Source of the DNA: Patescibacteria group bacterium UBA5147
GTDB taxonomy: Bacteria > Patescibacteriota > Saccharimonadia > UBA4664
DNA: 64,000 nucleotides
Direction: 5' to 3'
Assembly: GCA_002415345.1 (NCBI GenBank)
Contig: DHXV01000002.1
Span: 76,155 to 140,154, forward strand
The notes under the pieces were generated by a model. That model was not told where the DNA came from and searched no databases. It worked only from the letters and a program-made list of their open reading frames with translations. Made by a program: the position numbers and the translations under genes. Below, piece after piece: positions 24,127-60,670 of the stretch. Positions within the stretch are counted from its first letter, which is position 1, and each line of letters opens with the position of its first letter.

Positions 24127-24136
24127 GAAAATAGTC

Positions 24137-26289: not shown

Positions 26290-26406
26290 GTGAAAGTACG
26301 CGCAAGCGTTAAGAAAATGTGCGAATCTTGCAAAGTCGTGCGTCGCGAAGGCGTCGTGCGGGTTATCTGCTCGGCTAAGCCTCGTCATAAACAGAGGCAG
26401 GGTTAA
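26290..26406 (+). CDS. rpmJ: 50S ribosomal protein L36
   Basis: GTG start; 38 aa [38 protein letters not shown] with a C4-type zinc site. Below the ORF-track size cutoff. Confidence 0.9.
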
Positions 26407-26793
26407 ATGGCACGTATAGCAGGTGTTAACATTCCGGATGCCAAGCGCGTCGAAATTGCCCTTACCTACGTATTTGGTATCGGCAATACCACCAGCCGCA
26501 AGATTCTTGAGGCAACTGGTGTCGACCCGAACACCCGGGTCAAGGACTTGAGCGAGGCTGATACTTCCAAGCTTCGTGAACATATCGACAAGAACCTTCA
26601 GGTTGAAGGGGATCTCCAACGCCAGGTTGCGCTTAACATCGCCCGGCTCAAGGAAATAAACTCGTATCGTGGTCTCCGCCACAAGGCCAACCTCCCGGTT
26701 CATGGCCAGCGTACCAAGACCAACGCCCGCACCAAGCGCGGCCGGAAGATAACGATGGGAAGCGGCCGTAAGAAATCCGCAGCTAAGACTTAA
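26407..26793 (+). CDS. rpsM: 30S ribosomal protein S13
   Basis: 128 aa; [26 protein letters not shown] is typical S13. Confidence 0.96.
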
Positions 26794-26802
26794 GGACAGA
26801 AT

Positions 26803-27207
26803 ATGGCAAAGACACCTACTAAATCCACAACCGCTGCCCGACGTCGCAAGATCAAGCGTACGGTCGCGACCGGGCAGATGCACGTTCAGGCAACGTTCAA
26901 CAATACTATAATCTCGTTCACTGATGAACGCGGCAACCTGTTGTCGTGGTCCAGTGCAGGGTCAGCCGGGTTCAAGGGCTCTCGCAAGAGCACTCCCTTT
27001 GCCGCCCAGACTGCCGCAGAAAAGGCTGCTACGATCGCCAAAGACTTCGGTCTTAGCCGAGTAGACGTCTTTGTGCGCGGCGTCGGCAGCGGTCGGGAGT
27101 CAGCTATTCGCGCCCTCATCACGGCCGGCATCGCTGTTTCGAGCATCAAGGACGTCACGGGCATTCCCCACAATGGCTGCCGTCCGCGAAAGGCACGGAG
27201 AGTCTAA
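26803..27207 (+). CDS. rpsK: 30S ribosomal protein S11
   Basis: 134 aa; typical S11 core. Confidence 0.95.
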
Positions 27208-47595: not shown

Positions 47596-49065
47596 ATGTC
47601 AAGTACACGGATCCAAATTGCGCCAGCTTCGCGTGATGCCACCCGTGGCAATATGCGCGTTCCGGCTGGTCTGTTTCATGCCTTCGCTCATCTTCTCCAT
47701 AAATGGCGGCCCGTAGTCTTTATCATTCTTTTTCTCGGAATTGTCGTGGCACCGTTCTACGTTGTCACGCAAGCCTTAGAGAGTGGTGACGGCTGTTCCG
47801 CGGTCAGCGCAACGCCAAAACGTGACGCTGAGGCAACCGTTTCAAAACCTGGCCCTCTTCCGAGTGTCGGATTCGAAAGCTATCCCGGTAATCCTAACCA
47901 GGTATTGGCAAAGTCTCGCTGCGTCTTCGACTCCAACCTGGAGCGCGTGGGCGTGGCTCAGTCAACCGCGCTGTCCAGTTCGGAGAGTGCCATCAATGAC
48001 TTTGCAGCCAGCAAGATGGGAAGCCTATCGGTTTTTTCGTTCCTGCTTTTCATCTTCGCAGCTGTTTCCTGTCTCTATTACTGGGTCAACCGGAAAGGTT
48101 CGCCTGATCGGAAGAAGGCGAGTAGTGATGATCTGTCCATGCGCGGCCGGCTCTTTGTCGGACCTGTCGCCTGGTTGATTATGGGGCTTTCGTTGCTCTA
48201 TTCGCAGAATGCCCTTGTCCTGCTGAACGCTCCGAGCCACGGCATAGTAGCCCTTAGCAGTGTGGGTTCCCTGTCGAACGACAACCTGTCCAACTACACC
48301 TACCGCACAGCAGAGCTGAACCCTTTTGGTAGCGTGATGTACGGCTACGACCGTCAGTCCGAGTTCAAAGCCTCCGCCCCACATATCGATGCCTACCTCA
48401 GTGGGAGGCCGGTGAGTCAGGTGGAGTATAAGAATTATGCCGCGCTCTATAACCAGCGGGTCATAGCCGACGATAAGGTCGGATCCATGCAGAACACCGC
48501 CAAAGCGGTCGAACGCTTTGGAACCAGCCTGAACACCACTTCAGGAATCTTGGCTCAGGCCGTGAATATCCTGCGGTCGGCTTTTTTGGCGATTTTTGTA
48601 GGCAGCTTCTTTATCTTGGTTGCCCTGTGCGCGGTCCGACCCGTGAGAGCCAGGCGTTACTTCAAGCGCTGGTTCTTTGCCAACGCGGCACCGTTTGGCC
48701 TGCTAATTCTCAGTCTCATTGTCCTGTTGGGCGTCAACTGGGGAGGCATCTACGCGGTATCCTTTGCTACAGCCCCCGAAATGTGGGGAGTGGTGTGGGG
48801 TTGGACGTTAGCCGCCTACATAGTTCAAGTGATCGGGTATCTCGTGCCTTGGTTGCTGGTCTATTCGGTTTACCGGTACTACCGGCACACCTCCGGATGG
48901 ATGCTTCAGTCGATGGCCACATCCGACGACAGGTGGGTAATGGAAGTAGGCAACCGGCTCGTTGCGGCGCGCGAACAGCGTGCCATCACGGGCAGACTGC
49001 TTCTCAAAATCCCATATTTCCGCCGTAGGCAACTTACCGCCGCTCGGGTTGGTGGCACACCATGA
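47596..49065 (+). CDS. Polytopic membrane protein (hypothetical) preceding the tandem hydrolase genes
   Basis: 489 aa; at least 7 hydrophobic helices; it ends ...GGTP with TGA overlapping the next ATG, the same junction as the next gene. Confidence 0.45.
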   Translation: MSSTRIQIAPASRDATRGNMRVPAGLFHAFAHLLHKWRPVVFIILFLGIVVAPFYVVTQALESGDGCSAVSATPKRDAEATVSKPGPLPSVGFESYPGNPNQVLAKSRCVFDSNLERVGVAQSTALSSSESAINDFAASKMGSLSVFSFLLFIFAAVSCLYYWVNRKGSPDRKKASSDDLSMRGRLFVGPVAWLIMGLSLLYSQNALVLLNAPSHGIVALSSVGSLSNDNLSNYTYRTAELNPFGSVMYGYDRQSEFKASAPHIDAYLSGRPVSQVEYKNYAALYNQRVIADDKVGSMQNTAKAVERFGTSLNTTSGILAQAVNILRSAFLAIFVGSFFILVALCAVRPVRARRYFKRWFFANAAPFGLLILSLIVLLGVNWGGIYAVSFATAPEMWGVVWGWTLAAYIVQVIGYLVPWLLVYSVYRYYRHTSGWMLQSMATSDDRWVMEVGNRLVAAREQRAITGRLLLKIPYFRRRQLTAARVGGTP

Positions 49066-49291
49066 CCACGACGACTGCCGCACCTCAAGATACGGTGCGG
49101 CAGTCGGGCCAGAGTGGAACCGGAAGCAAAGGTAATCTTTTCGTTGCCGCTGCTTTGCTACTGGCTCTGGCCTTTCTCACGGGGCTGAACCCTGCTAATG
49201 CCCGTGCTGCAACATGGGACGCGGTTCAGTCCATCGCCAAACTCGACGGCAGCGGTCTATCCAAGACCATTGTCAAGGCGGGGGACAAGGC
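49051..49291 (+). repeat. Direct repeat copy 1 (241 bp) spanning gene junction plus N-terminal module
   Basis: Identical to 49806..50046 except one substitution (A 49113 vs G 49868). Confidence 0.85.
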
Positions 49292-49820
49292 TAAGAGCCA
49301 GGCAGAGAGCAAAGGGCTCGTGAACCCCGTTACCAAGGCCGGATACCGGTATGTGGCGATGGATAGTTCATGGGTTGGTAGCTTACCTAACGGGTGCGCG
49401 AACAAAGCTCATCCCTACATCGGCATGATGAATAATTCAGCCAAACAGGCTGACGTCGATGTCCGGCTCGTTGGGTCACTAACTTGCCACGAGTCCGGTT
49501 TTTCTCCAACCGTCTGTTCAGGCGCTGGGGCCTGCGGACTCGATCAGTTAATGCCTGCAACAGCCCGAGGGCTCGGAGTAACAAACCGGAGCGACCCCCA
49601 ACAGTCCCTGAATGGTGGCGCACGCTACCTGAGGGGTCAGTTGGATCGATTCGGCAAATTATCCTTGGCTTTGGCTGCGTATAATGCCGGATCCAATGCA
49701 GTTCTCGGTTATGAGAAAGGTGTAAAGGTCCGCGGTGTCGGTGTTCCGCCCTACGGTGAGACGATCAGTTACGTCGCAAGGATCCAAAACACCTACCGGG
49801 CAACCGGTGGCACACCATGA
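49062..49820 (+). CDS. Membrane-anchored lytic transglycosylase (SLT domain)
   Basis: 252 aa; signal-anchor LFVAAALLLALAFLTGL; SLT motifs CHESGF (catalytic Glu), GLDQLMPATA, AYNAGSNAV. Confidence 0.65.
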   Translation: MTTTTAAPQDTVRQSGQSGTGSKGNLFVAAALLLALAFLTGLNPANARAATWDAVQSIAKLDGSGLSKTIVKAGDKAKSQAESKGLVNPVTKAGYRYVAMDSSWVGSLPNGCANKAHPYIGMMNNSAKQADVDVRLVGSLTCHESGFSPTVCSGAGACGLDQLMPATARGLGVTNRSDPQQSLNGGARYLRGQLDRFGKLSLALAAYNAGSNAVLGYEKGVKVRGVGVPPYGETISYVARIQNTYRATGGTP

Positions 49821-50046
49821 CCACGACGACTGCCGCACCTCAAGATACGGTGCGGCAGTCGGGCCAGGGTGGAACCGGAAGCAAAGGTAATCTTTTCGTT
49901 GCCGCTGCTTTGCTACTGGCTCTGGCCTTTCTCACGGGGCTGAACCCTGCTAATGCCCGTGCTGCAACATGGGACGCGGTTCAGTCCATCGCCAAACTCG
50001 ACGGCAGCGGTCTATCCAAGACCATTGTCAAGGCGGGGGACAAGGC
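49806..50046 (+). repeat. Direct repeat copy 2 (241 bp)
   Basis: See copy 1; both start with GGTGGCACACCATGACCACGACG. Confidence 0.85.
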
Positions 50047-50590
50047 CCAGCAGAAGGCGCAGTCCCAAGGTTTGGTTAACCCGTCAGACAATTCTGTTTC
50101 ACGCCGCGGACAAGCGTTAGTTGCCAGTGGGAGCGTAACAACCATCTCGATTGGCAAATGCAGGCCGCTACTCGATCTCAAGTCGGGTAAAATGTTCCCC
50201 CAGGCTATTACGTATCTGGAGAAACTGGCAAAAGCGGGTTTCACAGTTGAGATTAGTTGCATCTTTACCGGGCACACCTGGAACGTAGCGGGTACCAACC
50301 GAACCTCACTCCACTTCAAGGGGCAGGCGTTCGATATCACCCGCGTCAACGGTCAGCCGATCTGCGATGTCATGGTCGGTTCAGTCGACAGTCATCACGA
50401 CACACGTCACTGTTCAAAGCCGTCCGCTGCTAGCAAGAAACTCACTCACTGGCTCTTCGCCCAAGCTAACAGCCAACTTCCCTTTGAGGTTGGTGGGCCG
50501 TTTAGTACAGGGAGTCGTGACAAATCCAACGGTGGTCGGTTTTTCACCAACACCGGTCATCAGACCCATTTCCATTTCGGCTTCAAGTAG
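49817..50590 (+). CDS. Membrane-anchored peptidase M15-like peptidoglycan hydrolase
   Basis: 257 aa; first ~76 aa are nearly identical to the previous gene; C-terminal SLHFKGQAFDI (SxHxxGxAxD) and HQTHFHF (HxH) fit zinc D,D-peptidase M15. Confidence 0.55.
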   Translation: MTTTTAAPQDTVRQSGQGGTGSKGNLFVAAALLLALAFLTGLNPANARAATWDAVQSIAKLDGSGLSKTIVKAGDKAQQKAQSQGLVNPSDNSVSRRGQALVASGSVTTISIGKCRPLLDLKSGKMFPQAITYLEKLAKAGFTVEISCIFTGHTWNVAGTNRTSLHFKGQAFDITRVNGQPICDVMVGSVDSHHDTRHCSKPSAASKKLTHWLFAQANSQLPFEVGGPFSTGSRDKSNGGRFFTNTGHQTHFHFGFK

Positions 50591-50651
50591 ACTGACCCCA
50601 ATTTGCCAAGCGGAACTTGGCGGGGAGGTTCCTAGAATTAAGTTCGTTCCG

Positions 50652-50686
50652 TGGGCCCGCTCGATTTCGATCGAGCGGGCCCCTTT
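50652..50686 (+). terminator. Intrinsic terminator after the hydrolase pair
   Basis: GGGCCCGCTCGAT-ttcg-ATCGAGCGGGCCC followed by CTTTTCATTT. Confidence 0.8.
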
Positions 50687-50808
50687 TCATTTATTGCCTG
50701 GAAACTGCAAATATGATGAAACTATATATGAGATAATTTCGTTTCAAAAAGTTAATACTGTACTTAAAATCAAAAAATGATACTTAAAATAAAAATTCTT
50801 AGTAACTA

Positions 50809-50837
50809 TTGACAGTAGCTGACAACATGCCTAGAAT
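50809..50837 (+). promoter_or_regulatory. Strong sigma70-like promoter (TTGACA-17-TAGAAT) for the T4SS-like cluster
   Basis: Consensus -35 with a near-consensus -10, embedded in a very AT-rich upstream tract; ~175 nt leader to the ATG at 51014. Confidence 0.5.
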
Positions 50838-51013
50838 AGAGAAAATACAACGAGGTGGATTCTGGTCGAGTGCTGCCTCTCGAAAATTCATTTTTCGGAA
50901 GACAGGTTTCGACGAGACTGTCGGGGCTAAAGTTTCTTTGATCGAGATCTCTGTTCTTTGAATTTATGTGTCAGGAATACCGTACCCACCACACCCTCTG
51001 AAAGGGGGCCGCA

Positions 51014-53173
51014 ATGACAATGCTAGCGGGTGACTCAGCGGATGAGGCAAATCGACCTCGACCACGTACGCTTCAAGGAAGAATCAACCAGGCCATCGGA
51101 CTGACAAAAGTCTTCTCCCTCGAGGAGATGACCGAATTTCACTCCGAAGCCATCCTGTTTGCGCTGCAACAGCGCGAAGAGGCGGCCAGGAACGAGCTCG
51201 GTAGTGCGACCTTTAACGGGCCGGCTGTCGTTGCGACTTTTTCGCCCAAGGGCGGGCCGGGTAAAACGACCATTGGTGCTGGCGAAGCCATCACCTGGAG
51301 TACAGCTCGGCGCCGCGACCGCGCGGTCGTCATCGGAGCCGACTCCAACGCCGGCACACTCAGCGTCAAGATGGGGCAGACAAAGGGTTGGTCACTCCAG
51401 ATGCTTGCCGATAAGCACGACGACATCGACTCCTATGAGAAACTCATCTGGGCCTTCGGGTTCCAGGGCGAGGGTGTCATGGTGGTCGCATCCGACCCGA
51501 GCGCCGAACGCGACAATGAGAACGCCACCGACTTCAAGAAGGTGGTTAATCATCTCTCCACCTATCTCAACGTTTTCAAGATCGACTGTGGAATTGATTT
51601 CAATAATCCGCTCACGCAGTCGGTGCTTGAAGCCACGGATATCCTCGTTCTTGTGACCGATCCCACCCGGGACTGTCTCACGACGATCGACGAACTCGTT
51701 CGCAAGCAGGGTAACGCCCCCATGTTTGGTCCGCTCATGGCAAATGGCATCCTCGTGATCAACAAGGTCAAGGATGACACACCATACCTTGACCGCATCA
51801 TCGCTCGCTACGAGCGGTTCTTCTCTCGGATCCTCATCGTCAACTACGACCGCCAGCTCGACACCGGCGGCGAAATCGTCATGGAGGACCTGGATTACGA
51901 GACCCGCGTCCAGTTCACCGAGCTGTCGGCGGCAATCGCCGGTTGTCTCTCGCGCGTTCGGCCACAGCGGCCGGAGGACCAGCTTGAGGTACCGGAGATT
52001 GACTCGAACCTTGCATGGCTTACCGCTCCGGAGACGCAGCCCTATGGCCTCGCTCCGCTCGACGGTGAGGATTTTGACTGGAGTCAGAAAAAGACTCCGG
52101 TGACCGTTCACGCACAGGTCACGTCAGCACAGCTCCACAACCCCGTCTTGGTTGGTGACCCTGGTCACCACTCAATGCGTTTCGGCGGAGTTGTGAGGAT
52201 CACCAAGGCAGCAACCATTGCCGCCATCGGTGCGGCCGGGCTTGGGGGAATATTCCCAACGGTCGCCATTGCCGACTCTGGCAGCGGACAGCCACTCTCA
52301 TCGGTTTCGGACGGTGCATCGAATGACGGAGCCTCGACAAGTGTCGAGACGCCGCCGTCTGTGGCCCCCGAGGCTCCAGCAGCTCCTGCGGGTGATACCG
52401 CTGTCAAGGTGCAAAGCGGCGCTGGTGTCACGGCAGATGTCGGTGCTTCGACGAGCGATGTTCCTACAGCGCAGGTTGAAGTACCACCAACGGCCTCTCC
52501 CGTGATTACGGATCCACAGCCTGCAGCAATAGGCGAGAGCCAACGGCATGGCAATCAGGCAACCACGGGCAAGCACAGAAGGCCCATTCCAACAGTTCAA
52601 CCTGAAGCACAGGTTTCAACTAGCCCGCCCCAACAGGTGCAGGCTGAAAGCCCTCGACCAGTAGTTGCCGATCAGGCAGCACCTCAAGTGGTTACTTCAC
52701 ATCCATCAGCCGCCTCACATCCGTCAACGACGGTTACGGGCACAACAGCCGATGGAGTCTCTCCGAAGTCACCGGTGTACCAAGCACCTGTTCAGGCGCA
52801 ACGTATCCATAACGAGGCTCAAGCCGCACCTCGCGTCTACTCGTCAACCGGCAAGCCGCAGGCATCCGCCAATGTGGCCGTTAGTTCCACCGAGAAATCG
52901 GCGACCGGCATATCGCAGTCCAACGAGCCAGCCAGCTCCGCGGCACCCGAATCACCGATGGTCGGCACTGTCTTCGTTACCAACGGGGACTCTCTTTGGA
53001 AAATTGCCGAAGATGCGCTTACGGTGCATCTGAGCAGGCAGCCTACGAATCATGAGATCGACCTCTACTGGCACCAGATTTATCAGGTGCCGGCAAACCA
53101 TGAGGTTATTGGCGGAAACGACGATTTGATCCTTCCCGGACAACGTCTGGAGCTGCCGGCTTTCCATTCCTGA
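51014..53173 (+). CDS. ParA/MinD-like P-loop ATPase - TM helix - Pro/Ser/Thr-rich linker - C-terminal LysM domain protein
   Basis: 719 aa; deviant Walker A FSPKGGPGKTT; one TM (ITKAATIAAIGAAGLGGIFPTVAIA) around residue 400; ~250-aa low-complexity linker; C-terminal LysM (GDSLWKIAE...IYQVPANHEVIGGNDDLILPGQRLELP). Confidence 0.55.
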   Translation: MTMLAGDSADEANRPRPRTLQGRINQAIGLTKVFSLEEMTEFHSEAILFALQQREEAARNELGSATFNGPAVVATFSPKGGPGKTTIGAGEAITWSTARRRDRAVVIGADSNAGTLSVKMGQTKGWSLQMLADKHDDIDSYEKLIWAFGFQGEGVMVVASDPSAERDNENATDFKKVVNHLSTYLNVFKIDCGIDFNNPLTQSVLEATDILVLVTDPTRDCLTTIDELVRKQGNAPMFGPLMANGILVINKVKDDTPYLDRIIARYERFFSRILIVNYDRQLDTGGEIVMEDLDYETRVQFTELSAAIAGCLSRVRPQRPEDQLEVPEIDSNLAWLTAPETQPYGLAPLDGEDFDWSQKKTPVTVHAQVTSAQLHNPVLVGDPGHHSMRFGGVVRITKAATIAAIGAAGLGGIFPTVAIADSGSGQPLSSVSDGASNDGASTSVETPPSVAPEAPAAPAGDTAVKVQSGAGVTADVGASTSDVPTAQVEVPPTASPVITDPQPAAIGESQRHGNQATTGKHRRPIPTVQPEAQVSTSPPQQVQAESPRPVVADQAAPQVVTSHPSAASHPSTTVTGTTADGVSPKSPVYQAPVQAQRIHNEAQAAPRVYSSTGKPQASANVAVSSTEKSATGISQSNEPASSAAPESPMVGTVFVTNGDSLWKIAEDALTVHLSRQPTNHEIDLYWHQIYQVPANHEVIGGNDDLILPGQRLELPAFHS

Positions 53174-53184
53174 CAACCGCTTTT

Positions 53185-53218
53185 ATCCCTCCGGGTCCAG
53201 CAATGGACCCGGAGGGAT
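53185..53218 (+). terminator. 15-bp perfect hairpin after the ParA-LysM gene
   Basis: ATCCCTCCGGGTCCA-gcaa-TGGACCCGGAGGGAT, 12 nt after the stop; no clean U-tract. Confidence 0.5.
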
Positions 53219-53351
53219 ACCAACTTTATCCGACTCAAGTACAGTCTAGTTTTTGAGCCGGGTCGTGTTGAAAGATACTGGCCCCTATTGCAGTAAATCT
53301 GCAAGTTCTTTTCCAATTGAATCGATACAACAACGAGAAGAGGTTATTCTT

Positions 53352-54380
53352 ATGCGCTTTCCAAGCCGTAAGCGCTTCGCGCCCAGAAATGGGGGGAGCC
53401 CTCAGTTTCCAACTTCCAAGCTCCGCGCCGAAGGCGCGAGCGTTTGGATGGCCATCCGACTGCATCACATACTTCGCTACTTGCTAGCTGGCATCATTGG
53501 TGCTGCTCTTGTGGGTACGCCACTGCTTGTTAATGCAGCCCAGATACGTAGCGATAACACCAAAACAGCTAGTGAAAACGCTGTGAGGGACTCGCGTCTA
53601 AATAGTCGCATCGATGCATTTGCAGCTAGTTGCGAGGGCAAAGGAACGTGTAAAACGTTCCCGTTCACGCGAGCGTTGCAGGTCACACAGCTCTACGCCA
53701 TTACCTGCTTTAACTACAGTGCTCAGAGCCCCACCGACGATCAGCCCATTCGGCTGAAGGCGGTGCCGGGCGCGGGCGCAAGCTGTGGGTGGGGCGGGGA
53801 CGGAAGCTCGACAACCGTCGCCGTGGTGCCGGACTCCAGCTACCAGCTGGGTGTTCCAACCGCTGACGGAAAGGCACAGGACGCCTCCGTTGGTATTACC
53901 GGTGTCAGCGTTCTGCTGGCCGGCCAACAGGACGTTCTGAGTTACGTTGTTCCGCTCAAGACGACGCCATCCGGTGTCGTGATTGCATCACCAGGAGCAT
54001 TTTACTCCACACCACCGAACACACTCATACGCAGTTGTTCGCCCGACACCGTCTTCAGTGATAGTGAGGGAATTCAGAAGCGTCTCCAGCAAATGGAGGC
54101 TGGTCGTGCTCGCACACCCAACATTGATCCTCGCGACTACCTGATGCCGGGGCGTACCATCGGTACGTTCGGTAAGAGTGTCACCAAGATTACTGTGACG
54201 GGAGTTACTGTCTGCCAGGGTTCGTCCGACAACGTACGAACCGTGGTTTCGCAAGAACGTTTCGACGGCCCCACTCTGGGGAGCCACTTTGACTTTTCGC
54301 TCGGGTACGTCCTGCAGCTGATTGATAATAAGTGGTATGTACTCAACTGGGGCCCCGTCTTGAACCAGAGCTCCCTCTAG
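53352..54380 (+). CDS. Membrane-anchored/secreted protein (possible VirB8/TcpC-like NTF2-fold component)
   Basis: Start ATG 53352 with GAGAAGAGG RBS; hydrophobic anchor LLAGIIGAALVGTPLLVNAA; no enzyme motif. Any VirB8 link rests on position and architecture only. Confidence 0.35.
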   Translation: MRFPSRKRFAPRNGGSPQFPTSKLRAEGASVWMAIRLHHILRYLLAGIIGAALVGTPLLVNAAQIRSDNTKTASENAVRDSRLNSRIDAFAASCEGKGTCKTFPFTRALQVTQLYAITCFNYSAQSPTDDQPIRLKAVPGAGASCGWGGDGSSTTVAVVPDSSYQLGVPTADGKAQDASVGITGVSVLLAGQQDVLSYVVPLKTTPSGVVIASPGAFYSTPPNTLIRSCSPDTVFSDSEGIQKRLQQMEAGRARTPNIDPRDYLMPGRTIGTFGKSVTKITVTGVTVCQGSSDNVRTVVSQERFDGPTLGSHFDFSLGYVLQLIDNKWYVLNWGPVLNQSSL

Positions 54381-54398: not shown

Positions 54399-54857
54399 AT
54401 GGGTTACAACGACCCGTCGCTCCCACCGGCGACAACGGAATATGGTTACGGAGTGAACTACAAGGACATTTTTGCTGAGTATCGTCACATCCCTTGGCTC
54501 AATGGGGGATATACCACTTTTCAACTCATGGTCTTTGGTGCTATTCCGGTGTTTCTTGCCGGCGGCCTGACACTTATTGGTTATGTCGTGAGCTTGAAGT
54601 CTGTTTATGCGGGTGGCACGTTCTACGTCATCGCACCGGCCAGCTTCATACTTGGCATGTACCTCAGCGCGCAGCTGGCAATAAGTGTAGGTAAGACCGA
54701 ACGGCATGGAAATACACAAGCACAATACTTGTGGGACAAACTGAAGTACCACTTTGCCTCGCGACACATCGTCAACGGGCATCCGCATTACGACAGCCTG
54801 CATCGCAGGCAGTCAGTTCTTTCCACTCATTCCTCCAAGGAGGCGGCACCACGATGA
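54399..54857 (+). CDS. VirB3-like small membrane protein (2 TM)
   Basis: 152 aa; two TM helices; AAGGAGG RBS; overlaps the start of the VirB4-like ATPase gene, as VirB3/PrgI-like genes do. Confidence 0.35.
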   Translation: MGYNDPSLPPATTEYGYGVNYKDIFAEYRHIPWLNGGYTTFQLMVFGAIPVFLAGGLTLIGYVVSLKSVYAGGTFYVIAPASFILGMYLSAQLAISVGKTERHGNTQAQYLWDKLKYHFASRHIVNGHPHYDSLHRRQSVLSTHSSKEAAPR

Positions 54858-57409
54858 AGTTTTCAAGTCCATTCGGACGAACGAAGTTGTCAGGCAAGCC
54901 GCCCCTCGGGGTACTTGCCGTCGATCGAATCGCCAGCCTAGTGACGCTATTCGGAACCTCATCGCCCATTCGGGATATCGACGGGTGTTTCCTGAAAAGC
55001 GCCAAGGGGCAATGGGAGGCCTGGTTCCGGATCGATCTGATCCGGGCCTATGACCTACTCTCAAGCGGCGAAAAGATGGGCGCATTTGAACGTCACCTCA
55101 AGCTAGTCGAAGAACTGGTCGGAAAAGTAGTTCACCTCGAAATTCTCGGCGTTCCTGTCGGGTATGAAGAGCGTTACCGCCGTTTCCGGCTTCACGAGCT
55201 CGACGATAAGAACCCGCTTCGAGGTGATCCAGAATGGGAGAAGTCTCGCCATGACCGGGTTCATGACATGGCGACCTGGCTACAGGAGAACGGCGACTTC
55301 GAGTCCCGAGCCTACCTTGGCATTTCTGTTTCGCCGTCGCCAGTCAATCGTCTATCGGCAGAGGCTTTCGCGCAGCTGCCGTTGGACGAACGATTCGGAG
55401 TAAGTTACTACCAGAACAGCCACCTCATCCCCGAGGCAGCACGTCTGCAGTTGTTAATGAAGGCCGCTTGGGGTGGCAAAGTCGACCCCTTGGACCGCGA
55501 CGAACTGGATGTCCTGCTGTCTCTTACTAACTGGCCGGGGCAACCGCAGATATTTGCGCCTGATCATACGGTCGGAGCTATCGGTGGGAGAGACACAGAA
55601 ATCAGCCACTATGGCAGCAGTAACTACAAAGTGGCGGCGCCGGGGGTACTTGAGTTTGAATATCTCGGCACCCCGTCCTTCGCCAGCTTCGTTCCATTGG
55701 TAATTGCAACTGCCCGGGAGTTTTTGCCAGAGACCGAAGAGGAGTTCGCCTTCTGTACCGACGGTGCGGGCAGGCGGCTTCGAATCAGTTGGCGATTCAA
55801 AGTGTGGAAGGGTCTGGATCTTCTCAATTTTGCCCGTAAAACTGCTCGACGGAACGCTAACCATCAGGTATACCTCGGTGAAAACGAGGGACAAATGGTG
55901 GATCTCGATACGGCTGTGGCATCAGCTCAGTCATTCTACAAGCACCTGCTCGATGACGGCATCGCCATCGTCGGCCCGTGCGTGTTGGTGGTAACCGGAG
56001 ATAGCGTCAAATCGGTACAGCAGGAAGTCCGAAATCAGGCCAACAGCCTGAAGAGGAAGGCTCACCTGGTAATCGATGCCGAAGAGTATCAGCAGGCGCT
56101 TTACGAGCACTGCCGTCCAGGTTCAGCCAGGTATCTCAACCGTTTCGTGCAGTATCTCATCCCAGAGGCCTTTGCTCGAGGTATGGCGTTCGTAACGTCA
56201 GCGCCACGGACGATGGGGCCCGATTTACTGGGATGGGTACGTGGGCGAGAGGGCGTCCCTTATACAGGGGGATACGACTTGGCAACTCTCCTTCCCGGCA
56301 CCAACGTATCGCCCACGAATTTGTGGTGCGGTCCTTCGGGAGGCGGGAAAACCACTTCAATCACCGATCAGTTGATTGCGCTCGTCGAGCGGGCAGGGTA
56401 TGTCGGCTTCATTTTCGAGCTTCTCAAAGACGACACCCGTCGTCTACTCGGACGCACGCCCTTAGGCATCACCGTCAGGGCATTTACTCTCGAGAATCAC
56501 CCTGGCCTGCTCAATCCGGCCGGATTCGCTACGATTCCTTCCGAGCGCGTGGATTGCATGAGCGACTTTTTGAAAGCCTGCATCGGCACCATTCGCTGGC
56601 GGGATGAATTTGAAGATCCTTTACGGAGCGCCTGTAAAACGGCAATTCGTGAGGCCGATGAAGCGGGCAACATGAGACCCGATCTCTACCGTGTAGTTGA
56701 GCTCCTCGACGGAGTTAAACTCATCGGATCGCTACTGGAGAAGGTAGCCGGCGACCAAAAAGTTGCTCCGGTTTTCTTTTCCAATCACTACGACCAATCG
56801 CTGATTGATACAATGACCCAGCCGGGTCTGAATATCATCGGCCAGGAGCATTTCAGTATCCCCGATCGTGACAACTTCGCTGATTACACACCGCAGAACT
56901 GGCTGGCACTGGCCGGACTCGACATCGTATCCATGCTTGCACGCAAGGTCGCACATGACCGAGATATTCGCGTGGCGATGGCAACGGTCGAGTTCTGGCG
57001 CACTGCCAGGCTCTCCCGGGGCGCAACCGAAGCGGCCTACATGGGGCGTGTCGGAAGAAGCCTGAATTGTGCTTCCGGCTACGACACTCAATTCCCAGAC
57101 GATGTTGATGAAACCCTGACCAAGCAGGTAACGACTAAGCTGGCATTCTCCGTCATAGGGGCGGAGGAGGTAGAGAAGTCGCTCCATCTGGTTAGTCAGG
57201 AGATTACTCCCAAGTCCATCAGAATGTTTGAGACGATGGCAATGGATACCGAAGACGGAACGGATATCAACAAGGGGACGCACATCGTGCAACTCCCAAC
57301 TCTGGAGACACTCCGTGTCCAGAGCCTGCGCTGGTATTTGCCTGCGGGCAGGACCACCGCATCAGATCTGCCGGAACAAACTCCGGCACCAATCCCCAAG
57401 GAGGGATGA
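54854..57409 (+). CDS. VirB4/TrbE/CagE-family type IV secretion ATPase-like protein
   Basis: Start ATG 54854 with AAGGAGG RBS (ORF-track start 54731 overlaps the previous gene); ~851 aa; Walker A GPSGGGKTT around residue 495; size and context fit VirB4. Confidence 0.5.
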   Translation: MKFSSPFGRTKLSGKPPLGVLAVDRIASLVTLFGTSSPIRDIDGCFLKSAKGQWEAWFRIDLIRAYDLLSSGEKMGAFERHLKLVEELVGKVVHLEILGVPVGYEERYRRFRLHELDDKNPLRGDPEWEKSRHDRVHDMATWLQENGDFESRAYLGISVSPSPVNRLSAEAFAQLPLDERFGVSYYQNSHLIPEAARLQLLMKAAWGGKVDPLDRDELDVLLSLTNWPGQPQIFAPDHTVGAIGGRDTEISHYGSSNYKVAAPGVLEFEYLGTPSFASFVPLVIATAREFLPETEEEFAFCTDGAGRRLRISWRFKVWKGLDLLNFARKTARRNANHQVYLGENEGQMVDLDTAVASAQSFYKHLLDDGIAIVGPCVLVVTGDSVKSVQQEVRNQANSLKRKAHLVIDAEEYQQALYEHCRPGSARYLNRFVQYLIPEAFARGMAFVTSAPRTMGPDLLGWVRGREGVPYTGGYDLATLLPGTNVSPTNLWCGPSGGGKTTSITDQLIALVERAGYVGFIFELLKDDTRRLLGRTPLGITVRAFTLENHPGLLNPAGFATIPSERVDCMSDFLKACIGTIRWRDEFEDPLRSACKTAIREADEAGNMRPDLYRVVELLDGVKLIGSLLEKVAGDQKVAPVFFSNHYDQSLIDTMTQPGLNIIGQEHFSIPDRDNFADYTPQNWLALAGLDIVSMLARKVAHDRDIRVAMATVEFWRTARLSRGATEAAYMGRVGRSLNCASGYDTQFPDDVDETLTKQVTTKLAFSVIGAEEVEKSLHLVSQEITPKSIRMFETMAMDTEDGTDINKGTHIVQLPTLETLRVQSLRWYLPAGRTTASDLPEQTPAPIPKEG

Positions 57410-57645
57410 AAATGGTCAAAAACTCTGTGTTGGCCGCGATCGGTTTGATGATCCTCGTGATTGTTCTGATCGTGATGGTGATCGGTGCAAAATTCTTTTT
57501 CAAGGATCAACAGCACCGAATTGGCGGCACGGTGGTTAACGCCATCTTGCTTGTCGGCTTCGGGATTGTCGGATCTGGTGCGGGGATCGGGGTTCTTGCA
57601 AAAGGTCTCGGCGCCGACTTGAAGATCCCTGGCCTCGGCGGTTAG
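57406..57645 (+). CDS. Small hydrophobic protein (2 TM; possible pilin/VirB2-like or accessory subunit)
   Basis: 79 aa; AAGGAGG RBS; ATGA-coupled to the VirB4-like gene; Gly-rich C-terminus. Confidence 0.35.
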   Translation: MKMVKNSVLAAIGLMILVIVLIVMVIGAKFFFKDQQHRIGGTVVNAILLVGFGIVGSGAGIGVLAKGLGADLKIPGLGG

Positions 57646-57701: not shown

Positions 57702-57817
57702 GGCTCAACCAGAGTTCTTATTCTTGTTAATAAGGCCTGTGGTTGAGTCGCTCCGCGTCTCAAGTACCTGTTTACATTCAGACATCGTCTCAAACGATAT
57801 CAAAGGAGCTGATCCGC

Positions 57818-59929
57818 ATGGCCTCCGTACTTAAGTGCCGGGCCATAGCCCGGATCCTCATGACGGCAGTTTTGATGCTAATGTTGTCCTGTTTTGCTTC
57901 AAACGCTCAAGCGGCTACCAACATTACGGGTCCAACCGAGCTCAGTATTACCGCCGCCAAGGCTGATACCTCTACCGTTCAAGTATCATGGAAGCCACCA
58001 CTCGACTTTCTCGGACAGATTACGGCGTACTCCCTTCGGCTAGATGGCAATCAAGTTGCGCAGTTCAAAGTGATAAACGGTCTGCTTCCGAGCACCTATG
58101 TCATTCCGGCCGCGCCGTTCAATCCTGGTGGTGCCGTTACGGTAGTAGCTTTGTCCGGTACGGCGCAAGTTGGCGATCCGTCTAACACGGTAATCCTCAA
58201 CAAGAGTGCGTCTCCGGCGTCACAACCAACTGCCACCCAAGCCACTCCGTCCTCGTCATACCAGGACAATGGGTACGGCGGTGCTCTTCAGTCTCCGCCG
58301 TACGCCGACAAAAATCAGCCGTCACCTCTTGAGGTGTATGGCGCTGGCAGCGGCATCCGTAGCCTCATTACCACCAACAATGACGGCACCCAATGGATCT
58401 CGGCGGGCATGAACGGAACGGCTGGAGCAATTTGGTCGATGGCGGTCCTCCTGCAAATCGCAGGTAGCGCGATCTTCGGCTGGGCGCTCATCAAAAGCAT
58501 TTACGGTGCTCTCATCGGTGCGATCCTCGCACTCCTGAACAGCTTCAACGTGAGCCCTATCTTCGGTGACATCCTGCTCATAGCGGTGGCGGTTACCATG
58601 GCTTGGGGCGCAATCATGATGATTCGGGACGAAGATCGTATCCGTAAGGGTATCGGCACTGCGTTATTGGTGCTCCTCGCAGGTCTCACATTCTTTGGGA
58701 ATGCAGCGTCTTTGGTTCCTCAGGTAGTTGAGATGCCTGTTACGGTCACCCAGTTCGCAATGGCAGAGGTATCCAAATGGGAGGTTCCCGGCGACAAGCC
58801 GGAGGACTATAACCTTAGTGTCAAGCCGACCTACAATGGCAATGAGTTGGAGCAATCCATCCGGCGCTATCTGAACCAAAACTGGCTTCAGACTACTTAC
58901 CCGGCCTATTGCCAGCTGAACTTCGGAAGCGTTGCGTGGTCAACAACCCACATCGTGCCGAACGACAAAGACTTGCCTAAGTATAAGGACCTCACCTTCT
59001 GCGAGTACCTGTTGAAGGCGCAGACGGAGAACAACACCACTGCCCTCGACAAACTGCGCAGCAATGACAGCGCAGGAGGCGTTGTGGGGGCAGCTACTGG
59101 CGGTCTGCTAGGCCACCGTGTGGGATATGTAGAGGCGGCAAGCCCGGAAATCTGGAATAACTACCAAGCCAGTGCTCCGGAAGTGTCGTCGTTGCGAATG
59201 TTGTTCAGCATCGTTGCTTTGGGCTCAAACTTCATTGACTTCGTAATCAAGGCAGGTCTGGGATTGTTTATTTCCCTGACGGTTTTGCTGCTTGGAGTCA
59301 GTACCATCATGCTGGGTTTCATGCTCTTGGCCGCAGTGGCTCCGCCACTTCTCGATTACCTTTTTCAGCACCTCAAAGAGATGCTGGCGAGGACTTGGAA
59401 GCCGGGTCTGGTCATGGCGTTCTTCATGATCGTGGACAAGATCGTATCCATTCTCTTCACCGCCAGCGGTGTTCGCGGATGGCTAATTGAGACAATCCTC
59501 AGGGGCATCACCATGGTGGTGTTGCTCGGGTGGGGGCTCTTTAAGATCTTTAGGGGGCAACGTTCCCACCGCACAATACGCGAGCCCGGAGCGCCGACTC
59601 CGCCGGAGTACTATGACCGGCCAAGCACTCCCGCTTCACCAGGTTATACGGTTCCTCCGTCCCAGCCAGCCCCGGCTGCGTCTCGGCCGGTTCAGGATTG
59701 GGTGAAGGTTCCAAGTTCGCGGCCTACTGCACCGCCGCCGGCCGCCATCGGCGGTCCACGTGTCGTGCAGGGCCGGGTAATCAGCAGTCGGGATTACCCG
59801 GCAATTGGTTCGTCTGTTTCTCCGCGTGGTAGTGCCCAAGCATTACCAAGGTCCCTGCCTCCTGCACCAAGCCGACCCAGCTTAGGGTCGCCACCTGCAA
59901 AGGCGCTTCCGGCGGCTCCTCGCCGCTAA
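57818..59929 (+). CDS. VirB6/TrbL-like polytopic membrane protein with N-terminal FN3-like ectodomain and Pro-rich C-terminal tail
   Basis: Start ATG 57818 with AAAGGAG RBS; signal peptide; ~180-aa extracellular segment; at least 7 TM helices; C-terminal ~130 aa Pro/Ser/Ala-rich. Confidence 0.45.
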   Translation: MASVLKCRAIARILMTAVLMLMLSCFASNAQAATNITGPTELSITAAKADTSTVQVSWKPPLDFLGQITAYSLRLDGNQVAQFKVINGLLPSTYVIPAAPFNPGGAVTVVALSGTAQVGDPSNTVILNKSASPASQPTATQATPSSSYQDNGYGGALQSPPYADKNQPSPLEVYGAGSGIRSLITTNNDGTQWISAGMNGTAGAIWSMAVLLQIAGSAIFGWALIKSIYGALIGAILALLNSFNVSPIFGDILLIAVAVTMAWGAIMMIRDEDRIRKGIGTALLVLLAGLTFFGNAASLVPQVVEMPVTVTQFAMAEVSKWEVPGDKPEDYNLSVKPTYNGNELEQSIRRYLNQNWLQTTYPAYCQLNFGSVAWSTTHIVPNDKDLPKYKDLTFCEYLLKAQTENNTTALDKLRSNDSAGGVVGAATGGLLGHRVGYVEAASPEIWNNYQASAPEVSSLRMLFSIVALGSNFIDFVIKAGLGLFISLTVLLLGVSTIMLGFMLLAAVAPPLLDYLFQHLKEMLARTWKPGLVMAFFMIVDKIVSILFTASGVRGWLIETILRGITMVVLLGWGLFKIFRGQRSHRTIREPGAPTPPEYYDRPSTPASPGYTVPPSQPAPAASRPVQDWVKVPSSRPTAPPPAAIGGPRVVQGRVISSRDYPAIGSSVSPRGSAQALPRSLPPAPSRPSLGSPPAKALPAAPRR

Positions 59930-60052: not shown

Positions 60053-60670
60053 ATGACTCATGTCAGACGGCTCCTTATTGGAGCCTGCCTCGTTGCGATA
60101 GTGGCATTTGCTGCCTGGAGAGGAAATCAATTCCAGACAGCACAAGTTACTCCTCGGCAGTCGACGGCATCCAAGGCAAATACGCAAATGCTTCCCCCGG
60201 ATGCAATGTCTCCAGTGCCACTTCCAACGGCGACAAGCGAGGACTATCAACCGGTTGACTGCTCGCGCGTCATCTCCTCAAGTCAGTTGGGGGATATCTA
60301 TTCGGCCGCCAAACTTTACGCAGGCTTCCCATCGGCGAAGCCCGCGAAGCAGGATGCACTTTCGCTAGCCCGATACGTTCTCCCAGGTCCGTTTCTCAAG
60401 AACACTCAAAGCTCATGGTCGAACTCTGGTGCGCCCATTCGCCGTTCAACCGGCGTTAAGGTAATTGAGTGTTCCGCCGGAGACCAATCCAGTCTGATCC
60501 AGCTCCTGTCCGTCATCCTGAGCGTAAACTCCGTCGATACAAGCGGATATGCGAGGATGGATACGGTTTCCTACGACATGTCAGTCGTGCGTACGGCGGG
60601 CCGATATTTAGTTGTCTCCATCGTGCCTAAGGGCATGTATGGAGGTGGCGCAAATGCGGCCCCCAACTAA
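60053..60670 (+). CDS. Membrane-anchored extracytoplasmic protein (hypothetical T4SS accessory)
   Basis: Start ATG 60053 with AGGAG RBS; N-terminal TM LLIGACLVAIVAFAAW; ~180-aa soluble domain. Confidence 0.4.
   Translation: MTHVRRLLIGACLVAIVAFAAWRGNQFQTAQVTPRQSTASKANTQMLPPDAMSPVPLPTATSEDYQPVDCSRVISSSQLGDIYSAAKLYAGFPSAKPAKQDALSLARYVLPGPFLKNTQSSWSNSGAPIRRSTGVKVIECSAGDQSSLIQLLSVILSVNSVDTSGYARMDTVSYDMSVVRTAGRYLVVSIVPKGMYGGGANAAPN

Follow-up and report, generated by a model that had tools for sequence, protein, structure and literature searches.

A single reading frame joining a MinD/ParA-type domain to a LysM-type domain beside a type IV secretion locus in a Patescibacteria group bacterium

Background

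Could one polypeptide carry a nucleotide switch in the cytoplasm and a cell-wall module outside, and what would such a protein do beside type IV secretion system (T4SS) genes? The question is raised by a 719-aa open reading frame of Patescibacteria group bacterium UBA5147. The window analysed here is the whole 64,000-nt stretch of contig DHXV01000002.1 (assembly GCA_002415345.1, positions 76,155 to 140,154). A sequence-only reading had described a ParA/MinD-like ATPase, a single transmembrane helix, a long linker and a LysM motif encoded in one frame. The four parts do lie in one frame. The architecture recurs, beside the same VirB3-like and VirB4-like genes, in five assemblies obtained independently (JGI permafrost, Logan, a second JGI sample, ENA and an NCBI MAG). 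Sample 3300012005 comes from permafrost. The features of the locus are listed in Table 1.

Table 1. Coordinates of the 719-aa gene, its expression signals and its neighbours in the window
Feature	Position	Strand	Basis
Intrinsic terminator of upstream gene	50653..50682	+	13-bp stem and T-run
Sigma-70-type promoter TTGACA-17-TAGAAT	50809..50837	+	11/12 consensus matches
~170-nt 5′ leader with predicted hairpins	50841..51013	+	nucleotide conservation
Whole ORF	51014..53173	+	719 aa, ATG start
N-terminal helical extension, residues 1-70	51014..51223	+	AlphaFold helices 20-27, 36-63
MinD/ParA-type P-loop domain, residues ~71-325	51224..51988	+	HMMER, AlphaFold, Foldseek, motifs
Walker A (K79, K84, T85)	51242-51271	+	within P-loop domain
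Poorly conserved, putatively cytoplasmic junction, residues 326-388	51989..52177	+	pLDDT <50, dN/dS 0.29
Putative export signal or membrane anchor, residues 389-420: RFGGVVRITK-AATIAAIGAAGLGGIFPTVAIA, then D421	52178..52273	+	Kyte-Doolittle and conserved design
Disordered A/S/P/T-rich spacer, residues 421-648	52274..52957	+	composition, model disorder, dN/dS 0.54
Extended LysM-type domain, residues 649-716	52958..53161	+	LysM fold, Pfam LysM below cut-off
12-bp hairpin directly after stop, without U-tract	53187..53216	+	read from sequence
Second conserved hairpin, T-rich tail, 5′ of partner gene	53288..53304	+	sequence and conservation
342-aa partner, N-terminal signal or anchor, no family assignment	53352..54380	+	co-conserved
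VirB3/PrgI-like protein, two TM segments	54399..54857	+	weak PrgI match E 0.0077, hydrophobicity
VirB4/TcpF-like T4SS ATPase, 851 aa	54854..57409	+	AAA_10 37.8 bits vs cut-off 27.5
Candidate polytopic VirB6-like component, nine predicted hydrophobic segments	57743-59929		

Results

The MinD/ParA-type domain

The N-terminal extension aligns with the pre-ATPase segment of MinD/ParA-type relatives. The deviant Walker A motif reads S77-P-K79-G-G-P-G-K84-T85-T86, with KGGPGKT intact, and its K79, K84 and T85, together with the switch-I D110 and the Walker B D191, line up with P. furiosus MinD. In the DxD pair, Gly (G108) takes the place of the first Asp, which 90% of relatives have. Pfam CbiA (PF01656) scores below its gathering threshold (E 0.069, 13.5 bits vs 25.4). 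An exhaustive HMMER search over residues ~65-320 gave 851 proteins at E<=1e-3, of which 189 reach E<=1e-10, and ten out of ten relatives scanned with CbiA matched it (E<=9e-5), nine of them above the cut-off. Homology of the 719-aa protein to the CbiA family is transitive only, running through relatives at E 1e-19 that pass the cut-off. AlphaFold gives a pLDDT of ~90 for residues 30-320, and Foldseek places the ATPase part with FleN, ParA, Soj, MinD and FlhG (probability 1.0, TM-score <=0.78; matched structures include ParA 3ea0, Soj 2bek and FleN 5j1j). As modelled, residues ~30-325 are a divergent MinD/ParA (SIMIBI) fold. Motif alignment, HMMER relatives and structure comparison therefore bear out the deviant Walker A and ParA-like core that had been read from the sequence.

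Two named members of this class were considered and rejected. The septum site-determining MinD model, minD_bact (TIGR01968), scores 27.4 bits vs a cut-off of 212.9, the C-terminus is replaced by the putative export segment, and MinC and MinE families have no match among ten flanking ORFs scanned. The ParA partition ATPase model NF041546 scores 17.8 bits vs 180, and no ParB-like neighbour is present among the flanking ORFs scanned.

The word ATPase suits the window protein, whose P-loop is intact, but not the family, since in three of the five orthologues the P-loop is gone; hydrolysis or nucleotide switching is therefore not the conserved function. The cytoplasmic domain comes as two deeply divergent cassettes (types A and B, ~23% identical), one with an intact and the other with a destroyed P-loop. 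A sliding-window identity profile puts the boundary between the types at about residues 339-357; the junction is 15-33% identical among orthologues, with a continuous reading frame. Close relatives have swapped cassettes, and the exchange kept the frame.

The spacer and the LysM-type domain

The long low-complexity linker is present as described earlier. Residues 422-647 consist of 16% Ala, 15% Ser, 13% Pro, 11% Val, 9% Thr and 8% Gln and are disordered in the AlphaFold model. The spacer measures 229, 228, 228, 228 and 232 aa in the five orthologues, at an identity of 15-60%. Wall-spanning segments of Gram-positive surface proteins are typically of such A/S/P/T-rich composition. The fixed length suggests a molecular ruler across the wall.

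The C-terminal domain had been called a canonical LysM. The fold and the motifs are there, but the domain is an extended variant (61-67 aa vs 43) just under the Pfam cut-off: LysM (PF01476) scores 13.3 bits in the whole protein and 20.6 bits vs 20.9 in the isolated domain. All six orthologues match the model (best E 1.1e-4), the beta-alpha-alpha-beta fold superposes on solved LysM domains, and GDSLWxIA and PGQxLxLP are invariant among orthologues. The LysM fold is under strong purifying selection (dN/dS 0.11).

The nearest structural relatives of this domain include phage and contractile-injection baseplate modules. The LysM domains of phiCD508 gp61 and P2 gpX, which are phage/contractile-injection tail-tube initiators, and of Kbp/YgaU share its W..IY...N..VIG.-P-LI.PGQ.L.-P half. 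The former sit in baseplates, where LysM modules have a role in protein assembly, not wall binding, and Kbp/YgaU is a cytoplasmic or periplasmic K+-binding protein. In contrast, the LysM of the 719-aa protein terminates a predicted secreted spacer in a putative T4SS protein.

The segment between the two halves

Residues 402-420 are the only hydrophobic segment of the protein (Kyte-Doolittle 1.88), with R389, R395 and K398 before it and D421 after it. The earlier description of a clear transmembrane helix is overstated. First, the hydrophobicity is marginal. Orthologue segments reach only 1.25-1.47, the classical threshold of 1.6 being exceeded by the window protein only, and the Hessa sum is +2.8 kcal/mol in the window protein and ranges from +2.8 to +6.8. 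These values are typical of cleavable signals and lower than those of the true transmembrane segments of neighbouring genes. Second, AlphaFold does not model the segment as a helix. Third, the design is that of a signal peptide. All five orthologues have an n-h-c layout of basic residues, an 18-20-aa Ala/Gly/Thr core, a Pro at about -6 and a final AxA↓D; 2-5 Arg/Lys precede an uncharged stretch of 22-24 residues, with Asp following. The segment thus looks like an internal signal peptide. With an ATPase inside and a wall anchor outside on one polypeptide, as first proposed, the N-in/C-out orientation is plausible, but stable bitopic anchoring is more than the data show: given the signal-peptide-like design and the AxA↓D end, the protein may be cleaved rather than stay bitopic.

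Two products could in this way arise from one ORF. Signal peptidase I may cut the inserted precursor at A420↓D421, leaving a MinD/ParA-like protein anchored by its C-terminus and releasing the spacer and LysM as a free wall protein. Alternatively, initiation at an internal GTG may produce an ordinary secreted LysM protein in its own right, with the segment as its N-terminal signal peptide. Besides the n-h-c layout and the signal-like hydrophobicity, a Tat-like RR in four of the five orthologues is consistent with this, as is a putative internal GTG preceded by GGAG or GGGG in four of five; in the window protein this GTG is the codon of V394 (52193-52195), and M388 also lies just upstream of it. 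However, the orthologue at locus L005 lacks a start codon there, and the spacing from the Shine-Dalgarno to the GTG is only 2-3 nt. Moreover, every orthologue runs from one half into the other without a stop codon although the junction diverges fast; translation from codon 1 must therefore yield the fusion, kept so by selection, and the frame was also preserved through the cassette exchange. Internal signal peptides are seldom cleaved in bacteria. On balance we consider two products rather unlikely, while giving the idea appreciable weight.

A second alternative keeps the whole protein in the cytoplasm. The segment would then be no export signal, the spacer would be disorder of the EspI type, and the LysM-like module would serve protein-protein contacts. 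The weak hydrophobicity of the orthologues and the missing AlphaFold helix agree with this, as do the baseplate LysM proteins among the best structural matches. In the distant orthologue P0008 the tail is disordered, with neither a hydrophobic segment nor a LysM (its C-terminus as a degenerate LysM was rejected, at an hhalign probability of only 5%). Long disordered regions are also usual in the relatives, and EspI likewise has one (PMC11302016). Against this, the uncharged stretch, with its flanking charges and AxA end, is conserved inside an otherwise fast-evolving region, and the two invariant LysM motifs both line the sugar groove in canonical LysM domains. The composition of the spacer, typical of wall-spanning segments, also argues for export. 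An entirely cytoplasmic protein is therefore improbable in our judgement.

Neighbourhood, synteny and expression

All six loci, even the distant L004 (40% identity, E 7e-42), have the 342-aa partner directly 3′ of the gene, and the soluble orthologue P0008 retains the same downstream partner. Beyond it, the VirB3/PrgI-like protein scores 17.2 bits against PrgI (cut-off 27), and the VirB4-like protein has TcpF as its best NCBIfam match (E 3.5e-10). Cell-wall hydrolases flank the 719-aa gene on both sides, with SLT and a fused SLT_2+VanY passing Pfam cut-offs. No relaxase or coupling protein (VirD4/TcpA) was matched by Pfam or NCBIfam in the ORFs scanned from 35 to 64 kb (the contig ends ~4 kb beyond the window), nor is one listed in the precomputed Pfam table within 10 kb on either side of L005. 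By gene content, the cluster is a putative chromosomal, Gram-positive-type (MPF-FATA-like) T4SS without a recognisable relaxase or coupling protein.

The sequence-only reading had left it to be checked whether orthologues are always near VirB4-like genes. In five assemblies they lie two genes upstream of the VirB4/TcpF-like ATPase, and the position is fixed in 6/6 loci while VirB4 identity falls to 44%.

An own strong promoter, a long leader and a downstream hairpin had also been proposed, and all are conserved at the nucleotide level. The terminator of the preceding gene, after which a separate transcription unit begins, is kept with compensatory changes in L001, L007, L008 and L005, and both promoter hexamers (-35 and -10) are kept in 5/5 syntenic loci. 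Conservation of the leader reaches L005, whose VirB4 is only 44% identical; RNAalifold predicts 36 pairs in the leader, 3 of them with compensatory changes. A leader hairpin (50994-51008) contains the Shine-Dalgarno GGGGG, which lies 5 nt 5′ of the start. An Rfam search found no family in the leader, and only four tRNAs and Alpha_RBS in the whole window. The hairpin directly after the stop is kept with compensatory changes in 5/5 loci.

These signals, with a terminator before the gene and hairpins after it, would also suit a gene that adjoins the T4SS by chance, such as a division or partition ParA/MinD paralogue or a wall-organising protein. The constant position in the face of VirB4 divergence, the lack of a parB-, minC- or minE-like neighbour among the flanking ORFs scanned and the tiny scores against the MinD and ParA equivalog models all speak against chance adjacency, which we regard as very unlikely.

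Integrity and rarity of the architecture

The ORF and its four-part architecture are real. Indels among orthologues are codon-multiples only, and every segment has a dN/dS below 1 (0.05 in the ATPase, 0.29 in the junction, 0.54 in the linker and 0.11 in the LysM); selection acts on all of them. The same uninterrupted ORF recurs in five independent assemblies from different projects and is therefore not a frameshift artefact, so that an assembly or sequencing error joining two genes, already refuted by these comparative data, has practically no chance of being the explanation.

The combination of ATPase, export-signal-like segment, spacer and LysM is rare. Out of 1.84 billion cluster representatives, the other 149 best ones all lack both a LysM motif and a hydrophobic segment following the ATPase; 124 of the 151 matches have their disordered region first and the ATPase at the C-terminal end. 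With the full-length protein as query against a 5.8-billion-protein index, low-complexity words crowded out the candidates, leaving two proteins only, and the C-terminal domain as sole query gave one fragment, P0152. Scans of genome contigs with the ATPase part and a VirB4 alignment, and of metagenome contigs with LysM and VirB4 alignments, relied on poor peptide patterns and found no relatives. A megablast of 9 kb against plasmids was without match.

Discussion

Comparison with known systems

The architecture recalls how envelope machines are known to be pinned to the cell wall; ExeA is one analogue, HubP with its ParA-like clients another. [quoted passage not shown] ExeA/GspA are thus like the 719-aa protein in having a cytoplasmic ATPase, a single membrane segment and an extracytoplasmic peptidoglycan-binding domain and in being encoded with a secretion system; unlike it, their ATPase is of AAA type, not MinD/ParA, and their peptidoglycan-binding domain is not described as LysM (PMC4098917). 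The ExeA/GspA of Aeromonas and Vibrio, moreover, have no long spacer and belong to a diderm T2SS, working with ExeB and the secretin. Homology to ExeA/GspA was rejected, the fold being MinD/ParA and the wall module LysM; the likeness is architectural only.

HubP owes its targeting to its LysM domain and recruits ParA1, ParC and FlhG (PMC8789113). In HubP/FimV, a LysM outside the membrane fixes a landmark and the cytoplasmic side organises MinD/ParA ATPases and envelope machines (PMC8789113, PMC12918733). The LysM of HubP, however, is N-terminal, and separate ATPases are recruited by an acidic cytoplasmic domain, whereas the 719-aa protein has LysM and ParA-like domain on one chain, in reverse order.

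Among MinD/ParA ATPases, VirC1, TadZ/CpaE, FlhG/FleN and BcsQ position secretion, pilus, flagellar and cellulose machines. They share the fold and the deviant Walker A; unlike the 719-aa protein they are soluble or peripheral, with no transmembrane or export segment and no wall-binding domain. VirC1 positions T4SS substrates (PMC4949242) and works with a relaxosome, which the present locus lacks.

The nearest relatives have the consensus GWR..G.S..E before KGGVGKTTT and DANPD.GTL, a pattern that probably matches EspI. The 719-aa protein is ~30% identical to the nearest MinD/ParA relatives of EspI-type layout. EspI (Rv3876), which regulates ESX-1, likewise combines a P-loop NTPase with a long Pro-rich disordered region in a specialised secretion system (PMC11302016). 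In the EspI-like relatives, however, the ATPase is C-terminal, after the disordered region, and there is neither an export signal nor a LysM, whereas here the ATPase is N-terminal and the disorder follows. With this domain order, and a T4SS instead of a type VII locus, the protein does not belong to the EspI-like class.

Chromosomal T4SS of Patescibacteria (Saccharibacteria) are similar to the present locus in having a monoderm-type VirB4, a PrgI/VirB3-like protein and wall hydrolases by virB4, in lacking a relaxase or coupling protein, and in being vertically conserved (PMC12102498, PMC10633639). RpoA and SecY lie about equally far from every solved homologue, which speaks against an origin in Actinobacteria, Firmicutes or Proteobacteria. 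The Southlakia T4SS cluster (SEML1_0006-0019) was considered as a system with an equivalent gene; the supplementary-table rows matched by term contain no ParA-like or LysM component, and the VirB4 sizes given there differ from those of the present locus.

A possible role

The protein probably helps to position or assemble a relaxase-less T4SS of Gram-positive type while tethered to the wall. More specifically, we give about even chances to its being an accessory subunit of this T4SS that forms a wall-fixed landmark for VirB3/VirB4 assembly, the T4SS link being suggested by synteny. The N-terminal ~325 residues would be a cytoplasmic MinD/ParA-class (SIMIBI) nucleotide-switch domain, as suggested by its key motif residues: the signature lysine, the P-loop Lys-Thr, the switch-I Asp and the Walker B Asp are all kept. 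The internal basic/hydrophobic/AxA segment would send the C-terminal 300 residues across the membrane in N-in/C-out topology. The fixed-length disordered spacer of ~228 aa would carry the LysM-type domain into the wall, where motif conservation suggests that it may bind glycan. With the protein so fixed, its cytoplasmic end may recruit, position or gate the assembly of the VirB3/VirB4 platform and the 342-aa partner, and the P-loop-intact form may act by ATP-dependent dimerisation. Cleavage at the conserved AxA↓D would separate the two halves, which counts against this landmark.

A bolder proposal, which we regard as a long shot, is a trans-envelope switch in an episymbiotic Patescibacteria-like bacterium. 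The LysM on its 228-aa ruler would contact the bacterium's own wall or that of a host and signal to the MinD/ParA module, which would license the non-conjugative T4SS there; the live and dead cassettes would be regulatory alleles, and the structured leader RNA would control expression.

Conclusions

Cassettes with an intact and a dead P-loop at one locus offer a natural experiment on whether ParA-like secretion proteins act as switches or scaffolds. Little is understood of how Gram-positive- and Patescibacteria-type T4SS are placed in, and built through, a thick wall. For such a role, a subunit combining a positioning module of MinD/ParA type with a domain that binds the wall would be a concrete candidate.

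Conservation and rarity of the fused protein

The 719-aa target protein matches curated libraries only weakly (Pfam CbiA, E 0.069; Pfam LysM, E 0.085), and therefore other evidence was needed to test the domain calls. A search with the neighbouring VirB4-like protein yielded four more loci carrying a target orthologue (L001, L007, L008 and L005; see table). Two JGI contigs carry the identical target protein; one of them is 266,806 bp long and comes from sample 3300012005, which a paper describes as permafrost.

In collections of about 15 billion proteins, the architecture is present at only five loci, and no LysM motif or export-type hydrophobic segment after the ATPase was found elsewhere among the 150 best representative relatives. 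The four-part architecture proposed by the sequence-only reading, with a ParA/MinD-like ATPase, a hydrophobic segment, a linker and a LysM on one chain, is thus both real and rare. An artefactual fusion is ruled out by full-length orthologues at several loci with the gene order kept. The individual parts are ordinary; their combination is unusual.

Features of the target locus, its orthologues and the shared gene order (window positions unless a locus is named)
Feature	Position	Strand	Remarks
Promoter TTGACA-17-TAGAAT	50809-50837		
Shine-Dalgarno GGGGG	5 nt upstream of target ATG		
Target ORF	51014..53173	+	719 aa, ATG start
Hairpin after stop codon	53187-53216		Compensatory changes
Second hairpin	53288-53304		T-rich tail; followed by GTTCTTTTCC; compensatory changes
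Cassette type A	51014-52050 (window) and L001		Intact KGGPGKT
Cassette type B	L007:1812-2900, L008:3386-4480, L005:6133-7200		P-loop destroyed
Target orthologue	L001 (Logan)		716 aa
Target orthologue	L007 (second JGI sample)		710 aa
Target orthologue	L008 (ENA)		710 aa
Target orthologue	L005 (NCBI GCA_038244585.1)		722 aa
Gene order 1			489-aa polytopic protein
Gene order 2			SLT hydrolase
Gene order 3			257-aa protein
Gene order 4	51014..53173	+	Target
Gene order 5	53352..54380	+	~342-aa protein (partner)
Gene order 6			VirB3/PrgI-like protein
Gene order 7	54854..57409	+	VirB4/TcpF-like ATPase
Gene order 8	57406-57645		~79-aa protein with two TM segments
Gene order 9			~690-aa polytopic protein
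Gene order 10			~205-aa protein
Gene order 11	60639-61916		SLT_2+VanY hydrolase

Genomic setting

Gene order is the same at every locus wherever the contig reaches far enough. Between the target and the VirB4-like gene there are always two genes, for the partner and the VirB3-like protein, so that its proximity to VirB4-like genes holds for the orthologues as well. No relaxase, coupling protein or integrase was detected in window positions 35000-64000 or in the L005 and L007 flanks. Downstream of the cluster, L005 and L007 both carry thioredoxin-reductase-like, AspRS and BipA genes. Given these absences and the housekeeping genes downstream in relatives, the cluster looks like a vertically inherited, conserved chromosomal T4SS and not an obvious conjugative element.

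In the window, 14-30 kb separate the cluster from a tRNA cluster and ribosomal protein operons. Within 23629-24637 and 25947-27207, the L30 gene is missing, S5 being followed directly by L15 with no space for it, and, judged from the room available, adk and map also seem to be absent between secY and the rpsM-rpsK-rpsD-rpoA block. The distances of RpoA and SecY to all solved homologues are about equal and indicate only that the lineage is not close to any with solved structures. A Patescibacteria-like lineage, or another deep uncultured one, would fit this pattern, which is non-diagnostic. Taken with the missing L30, the chromosomal T4SS is reminiscent of the relaxase-less systems of Patescibacteria (PMC12102498, PMC10633639).

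Several neighbouring genes deserve mention. Two adjacent genes, for the SLT lytic transglycosylase and the 257-aa protein, owe their shared N-terminus (~80 residues that form a signal or anchor module) to a 277-nt direct repeat (49051-49327 and 49806-50082, 94% identity). Read by eye, the 257-aa protein has VanY/M15-type motifs, H-x6-D and H-x-H; SLT_2 and VanY are fused in one protein farther downstream. In the gene table of the JGI contig L002, the position of the 489-aa gene with respect to the SLT gene differs by 100 nt from that in the window (~47596-49152); the difference is within the 277-nt repeat and may stem from assembly or gene calling. The 79-aa protein encoded directly after VirB4, with two very hydrophobic segments, is kept at all loci; no family match was found for it, and it is possibly a VirB2-like pilin or a small membrane subunit.

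The cytoplasmic domain

Residues 77-86 of the target, SPKGGPGKTT, form a deviant Walker A motif. An exhaustive HMMER search of 1.84 billion cluster representatives, with residues 1-363 as the query, returned 851 proteins at E<=1e-3, of which 189 reach E<=1e-10. Only P0002, a 70%-identical orthologue, lies beyond 1e-30, and the next best relatives are about 30% identical (E 1e-19). Pfam CbiA, the MinD/ParA nucleotide-binding domain, was matched by all ten scanned relatives and its cut-off passed by nine; none of the ten reached an NCBIfam equivalog cut-off. Membership of the target in the MinD or ParA equivalog families was rejected, as its score is far under the cut-off (NCBIfam minD_bact, 27 against 213 bits). 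The ATPase domain forms the protein end, after a variable, often Pro-rich region, in 124 of 151 proteins examined. The relatives share the consensus GWR...G.S..E...KGGVGKTTT...DANPD.GTL, which may resemble that of EspI-type proteins of Actinobacteria.

The AlphaFold model has a pLDDT of ~90 over residues 30-320, and Foldseek matched FleN, ParA, Soj, MinD and FlhG at probability 1.0 (TM-score up to 0.78). In an alignment with P. furiosus MinD, K79 of the target corresponds to the signature Lys, K84 and T85 to the P-loop residues, D110 to the second switch-I Asp and D191 to the Walker B Asp; Gly takes the place of the first switch-I Asp. The motif, the CbiA matches of the relatives and the structural comparison agree on the ParA/MinD-like core first read from the sequence. 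The N-terminal part is thus a divergent but apparently competent MinD/ParA-class nucleotide-binding domain.

The orthologues carry two different cytoplasmic cassettes. The N-terminal domain has a phylogeny of its own, distinct from the one shared by the C-terminal half and the flanking genes. For the partner protein, L001, L007 and L008 are mutually 94-96% identical, with the window at 74-76% and L005 as outgroup at 47-49%; the flanking genes are 70-95% identical between close relatives. The type A copies of the window and L001, however, are 97-100% identical over residues 63-340 against 30-60% in the rest of the gene, and type B is only ~23% identical to type A. Type B has FGIE--PKQT or FGLN--PTDC in place of the P-loop, and L007 and L008 have also lost the Walker B Asp. 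Profile-profile comparison (probability 97.9%, E 4e-13, 278 columns) shows that type B retains homology to the MinD/ParA family; it is a degenerate pseudo-ATPase.

Similarity switches at residues ~339-357, exactly at the fold end, and the window and L001 differ least at synonymous sites within the cassette. Both observations fit a recent recombinational exchange of the cassette with the reading frame preserved. It follows that selection acts on the fusion itself. The P-loop-dead type B implies that the cytoplasmic domain is not conserved for ATP turnover. The fold and motifs of the proposed ATPase therefore stand, but its activity is not conserved among orthologues.

P0008 (L004:420-2102), a distant, soluble and syntenic orthologue, is 30% identical in the ATPase part and is encoded directly upstream of a 40%-identical partner homologue. 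Its signature lysine is replaced (TQGGVGKT), and its 160-aa disordered tail has no hydrophobic or export segment and no LysM. Hence the pairing of ATPase and partner predates the fusion, and fusion to an exported half is specific to one lineage.

The probably exported half

The sole candidate hydrophobic segment spans residues 402-420 (IAAIGAAGLGGIFPTVAIA; Kyte-Doolittle mean 1.88), with R389, R395 and K398 before it and D421 after it. By the simple Hessa sum it scores +2.8 kcal/mol, the corresponding orthologue segments reach Kyte-Doolittle values of only 1.25-1.47 against 2.1-3.5 in true TM segments of neighbouring genes, and the AlphaFold model has no helix there. The "clear" hydrophobic helix was thus overstated. 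All five orthologues keep one design: R[FY]xG, 2-5 basic residues (including RR in four orthologues), 22-24 uncharged residues rich in Ala, Gly and Thr with a Pro ~6 residues before their end, then AxA and Asp. This has the layout of a cleavable signal peptide, located ~390 residues into the target, and such conservation makes export of the C-terminal part likely.

The main rival explanation is that processing or internal initiation splits the target into two products. The cleavable layout, with AxA then Asp in every orthologue, favours it, as does, in four of five loci, a GTG codon that opens the basic stretch behind GGAG or GGGG; the window also has M388. However, the spacing to the GTG is short, and L005 has no such internal start codon at that position. 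That the entire protein is cytoplasmic, as the low hydrophobicity might allow, is a smaller possibility in view of the signal-peptide-like design.

The spacer (residues 422-647) is composed of 16% A, 15% S, 13% P, 11% V, 9% T and 8% Q, with 4% large hydrophobic residues, and is modelled as disordered by AlphaFold. Its dN/dS of 0.54 against the L001 orthologue shows relaxed selection on a sequence that is yet coding in the target frame. Although identity falls to 15-25% in L005, the five spacers measure 229, 228, 228, 228 and 232 aa, an indication that it is length and not sequence that is constrained. By our estimate, 228 residues would span up to roughly 80 nm when extended and some 10-15 nm as a coil, like a Gram-positive wall.

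The last ~70 residues are the best conserved across orthologues (63-76% identity, dN/dS 0.11). A six-sequence profile matched the tail-tube initiator gp61 of phage phiCD508, a "peptidoglycan-binding LysM protein" (9g8s_T, E 7.8e-7), and more weakly the LysM domains of SafA and LytE. Pfam LysM was matched by all six orthologues, the isolated window domain scoring 20.6 bits against a cut-off of 20.9. Modelled alone (pLDDT 85.8), the domain has a beta-alpha-alpha-alpha-beta order, and Foldseek agrees with LysM. The predicted LysM fold is therefore upheld, but "canonical" was too confident for what is an extended, non-canonical variant of 61-67 aa just under the Pfam cut-off. Its nearest relatives include baseplate modules, which are not known as wall binders. 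For this reason glycan binding is something we infer, backed by the invariant GDSLWxIA and PGQxLxLP motifs.

Regulation

Across the whole upstream intergenic region (50591-51013), nucleotide conservation extends to all five loci and exceeds that of the coding sequences, even where VirB4 is only 44% identical. Its conserved elements are a terminator, a ATATTGCCT box, the promoter and a ~170-nt leader. RNAalifold predicts three hairpins in the leader and one containing the Shine-Dalgarno (50994-51008), with covariation support that is thin for five sequences; no Rfam family matched. The leader is a candidate cis-regulatory RNA, one hairpin of which would sequester the Shine-Dalgarno. The intergenic region between target and partner (53174-53351) is likewise conserved in five loci. 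The promoter, leader and downstream hairpin ascribed to this gene are hence present and conserved.

Possible role in the T4SS

There are parallels for such a design. First, ExeA combines a cytoplasmic ATPase, one TM and a peptidoglycan-binding domain, and is needed for secretin assembly (PMC4098917). Second, HubP is LysM-targeted and recruits ParA1, ParC and FlhG (PMC8789113). Third, VirC1, EspI, TadZ and FlhG represent an ATPase class that places or gates envelope machines (PMC4949242, PMC11302016). The logic of the target would copy all three. As in ExeA, the ATPase would be cytoplasmic and the wall-binding domain outside; as in HubP, a LysM would fix the position and organise MinD/ParA-type ATPases, in the target all on one chain. 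The reading as a cytoplasmic ATPase joined to an outside wall anchor is partly supported: the architecture is real, but its TM and LysM were stated too confidently, and ATPase activity is not conserved among orthologues.

This is not a new kind of system but a variant on a known theme. In the best-supported reading, the target would be a wall-tethered organiser of the T4SS. From the cytoplasmic side, its MinD/ParA-type domain would act on the VirB3/VirB4 platform and on the partner conserved with it, type A cassettes serving as a nucleotide switch and type B as a scaffold, and the exported spacer would bring the LysM into the wall, thereby fixing its position.
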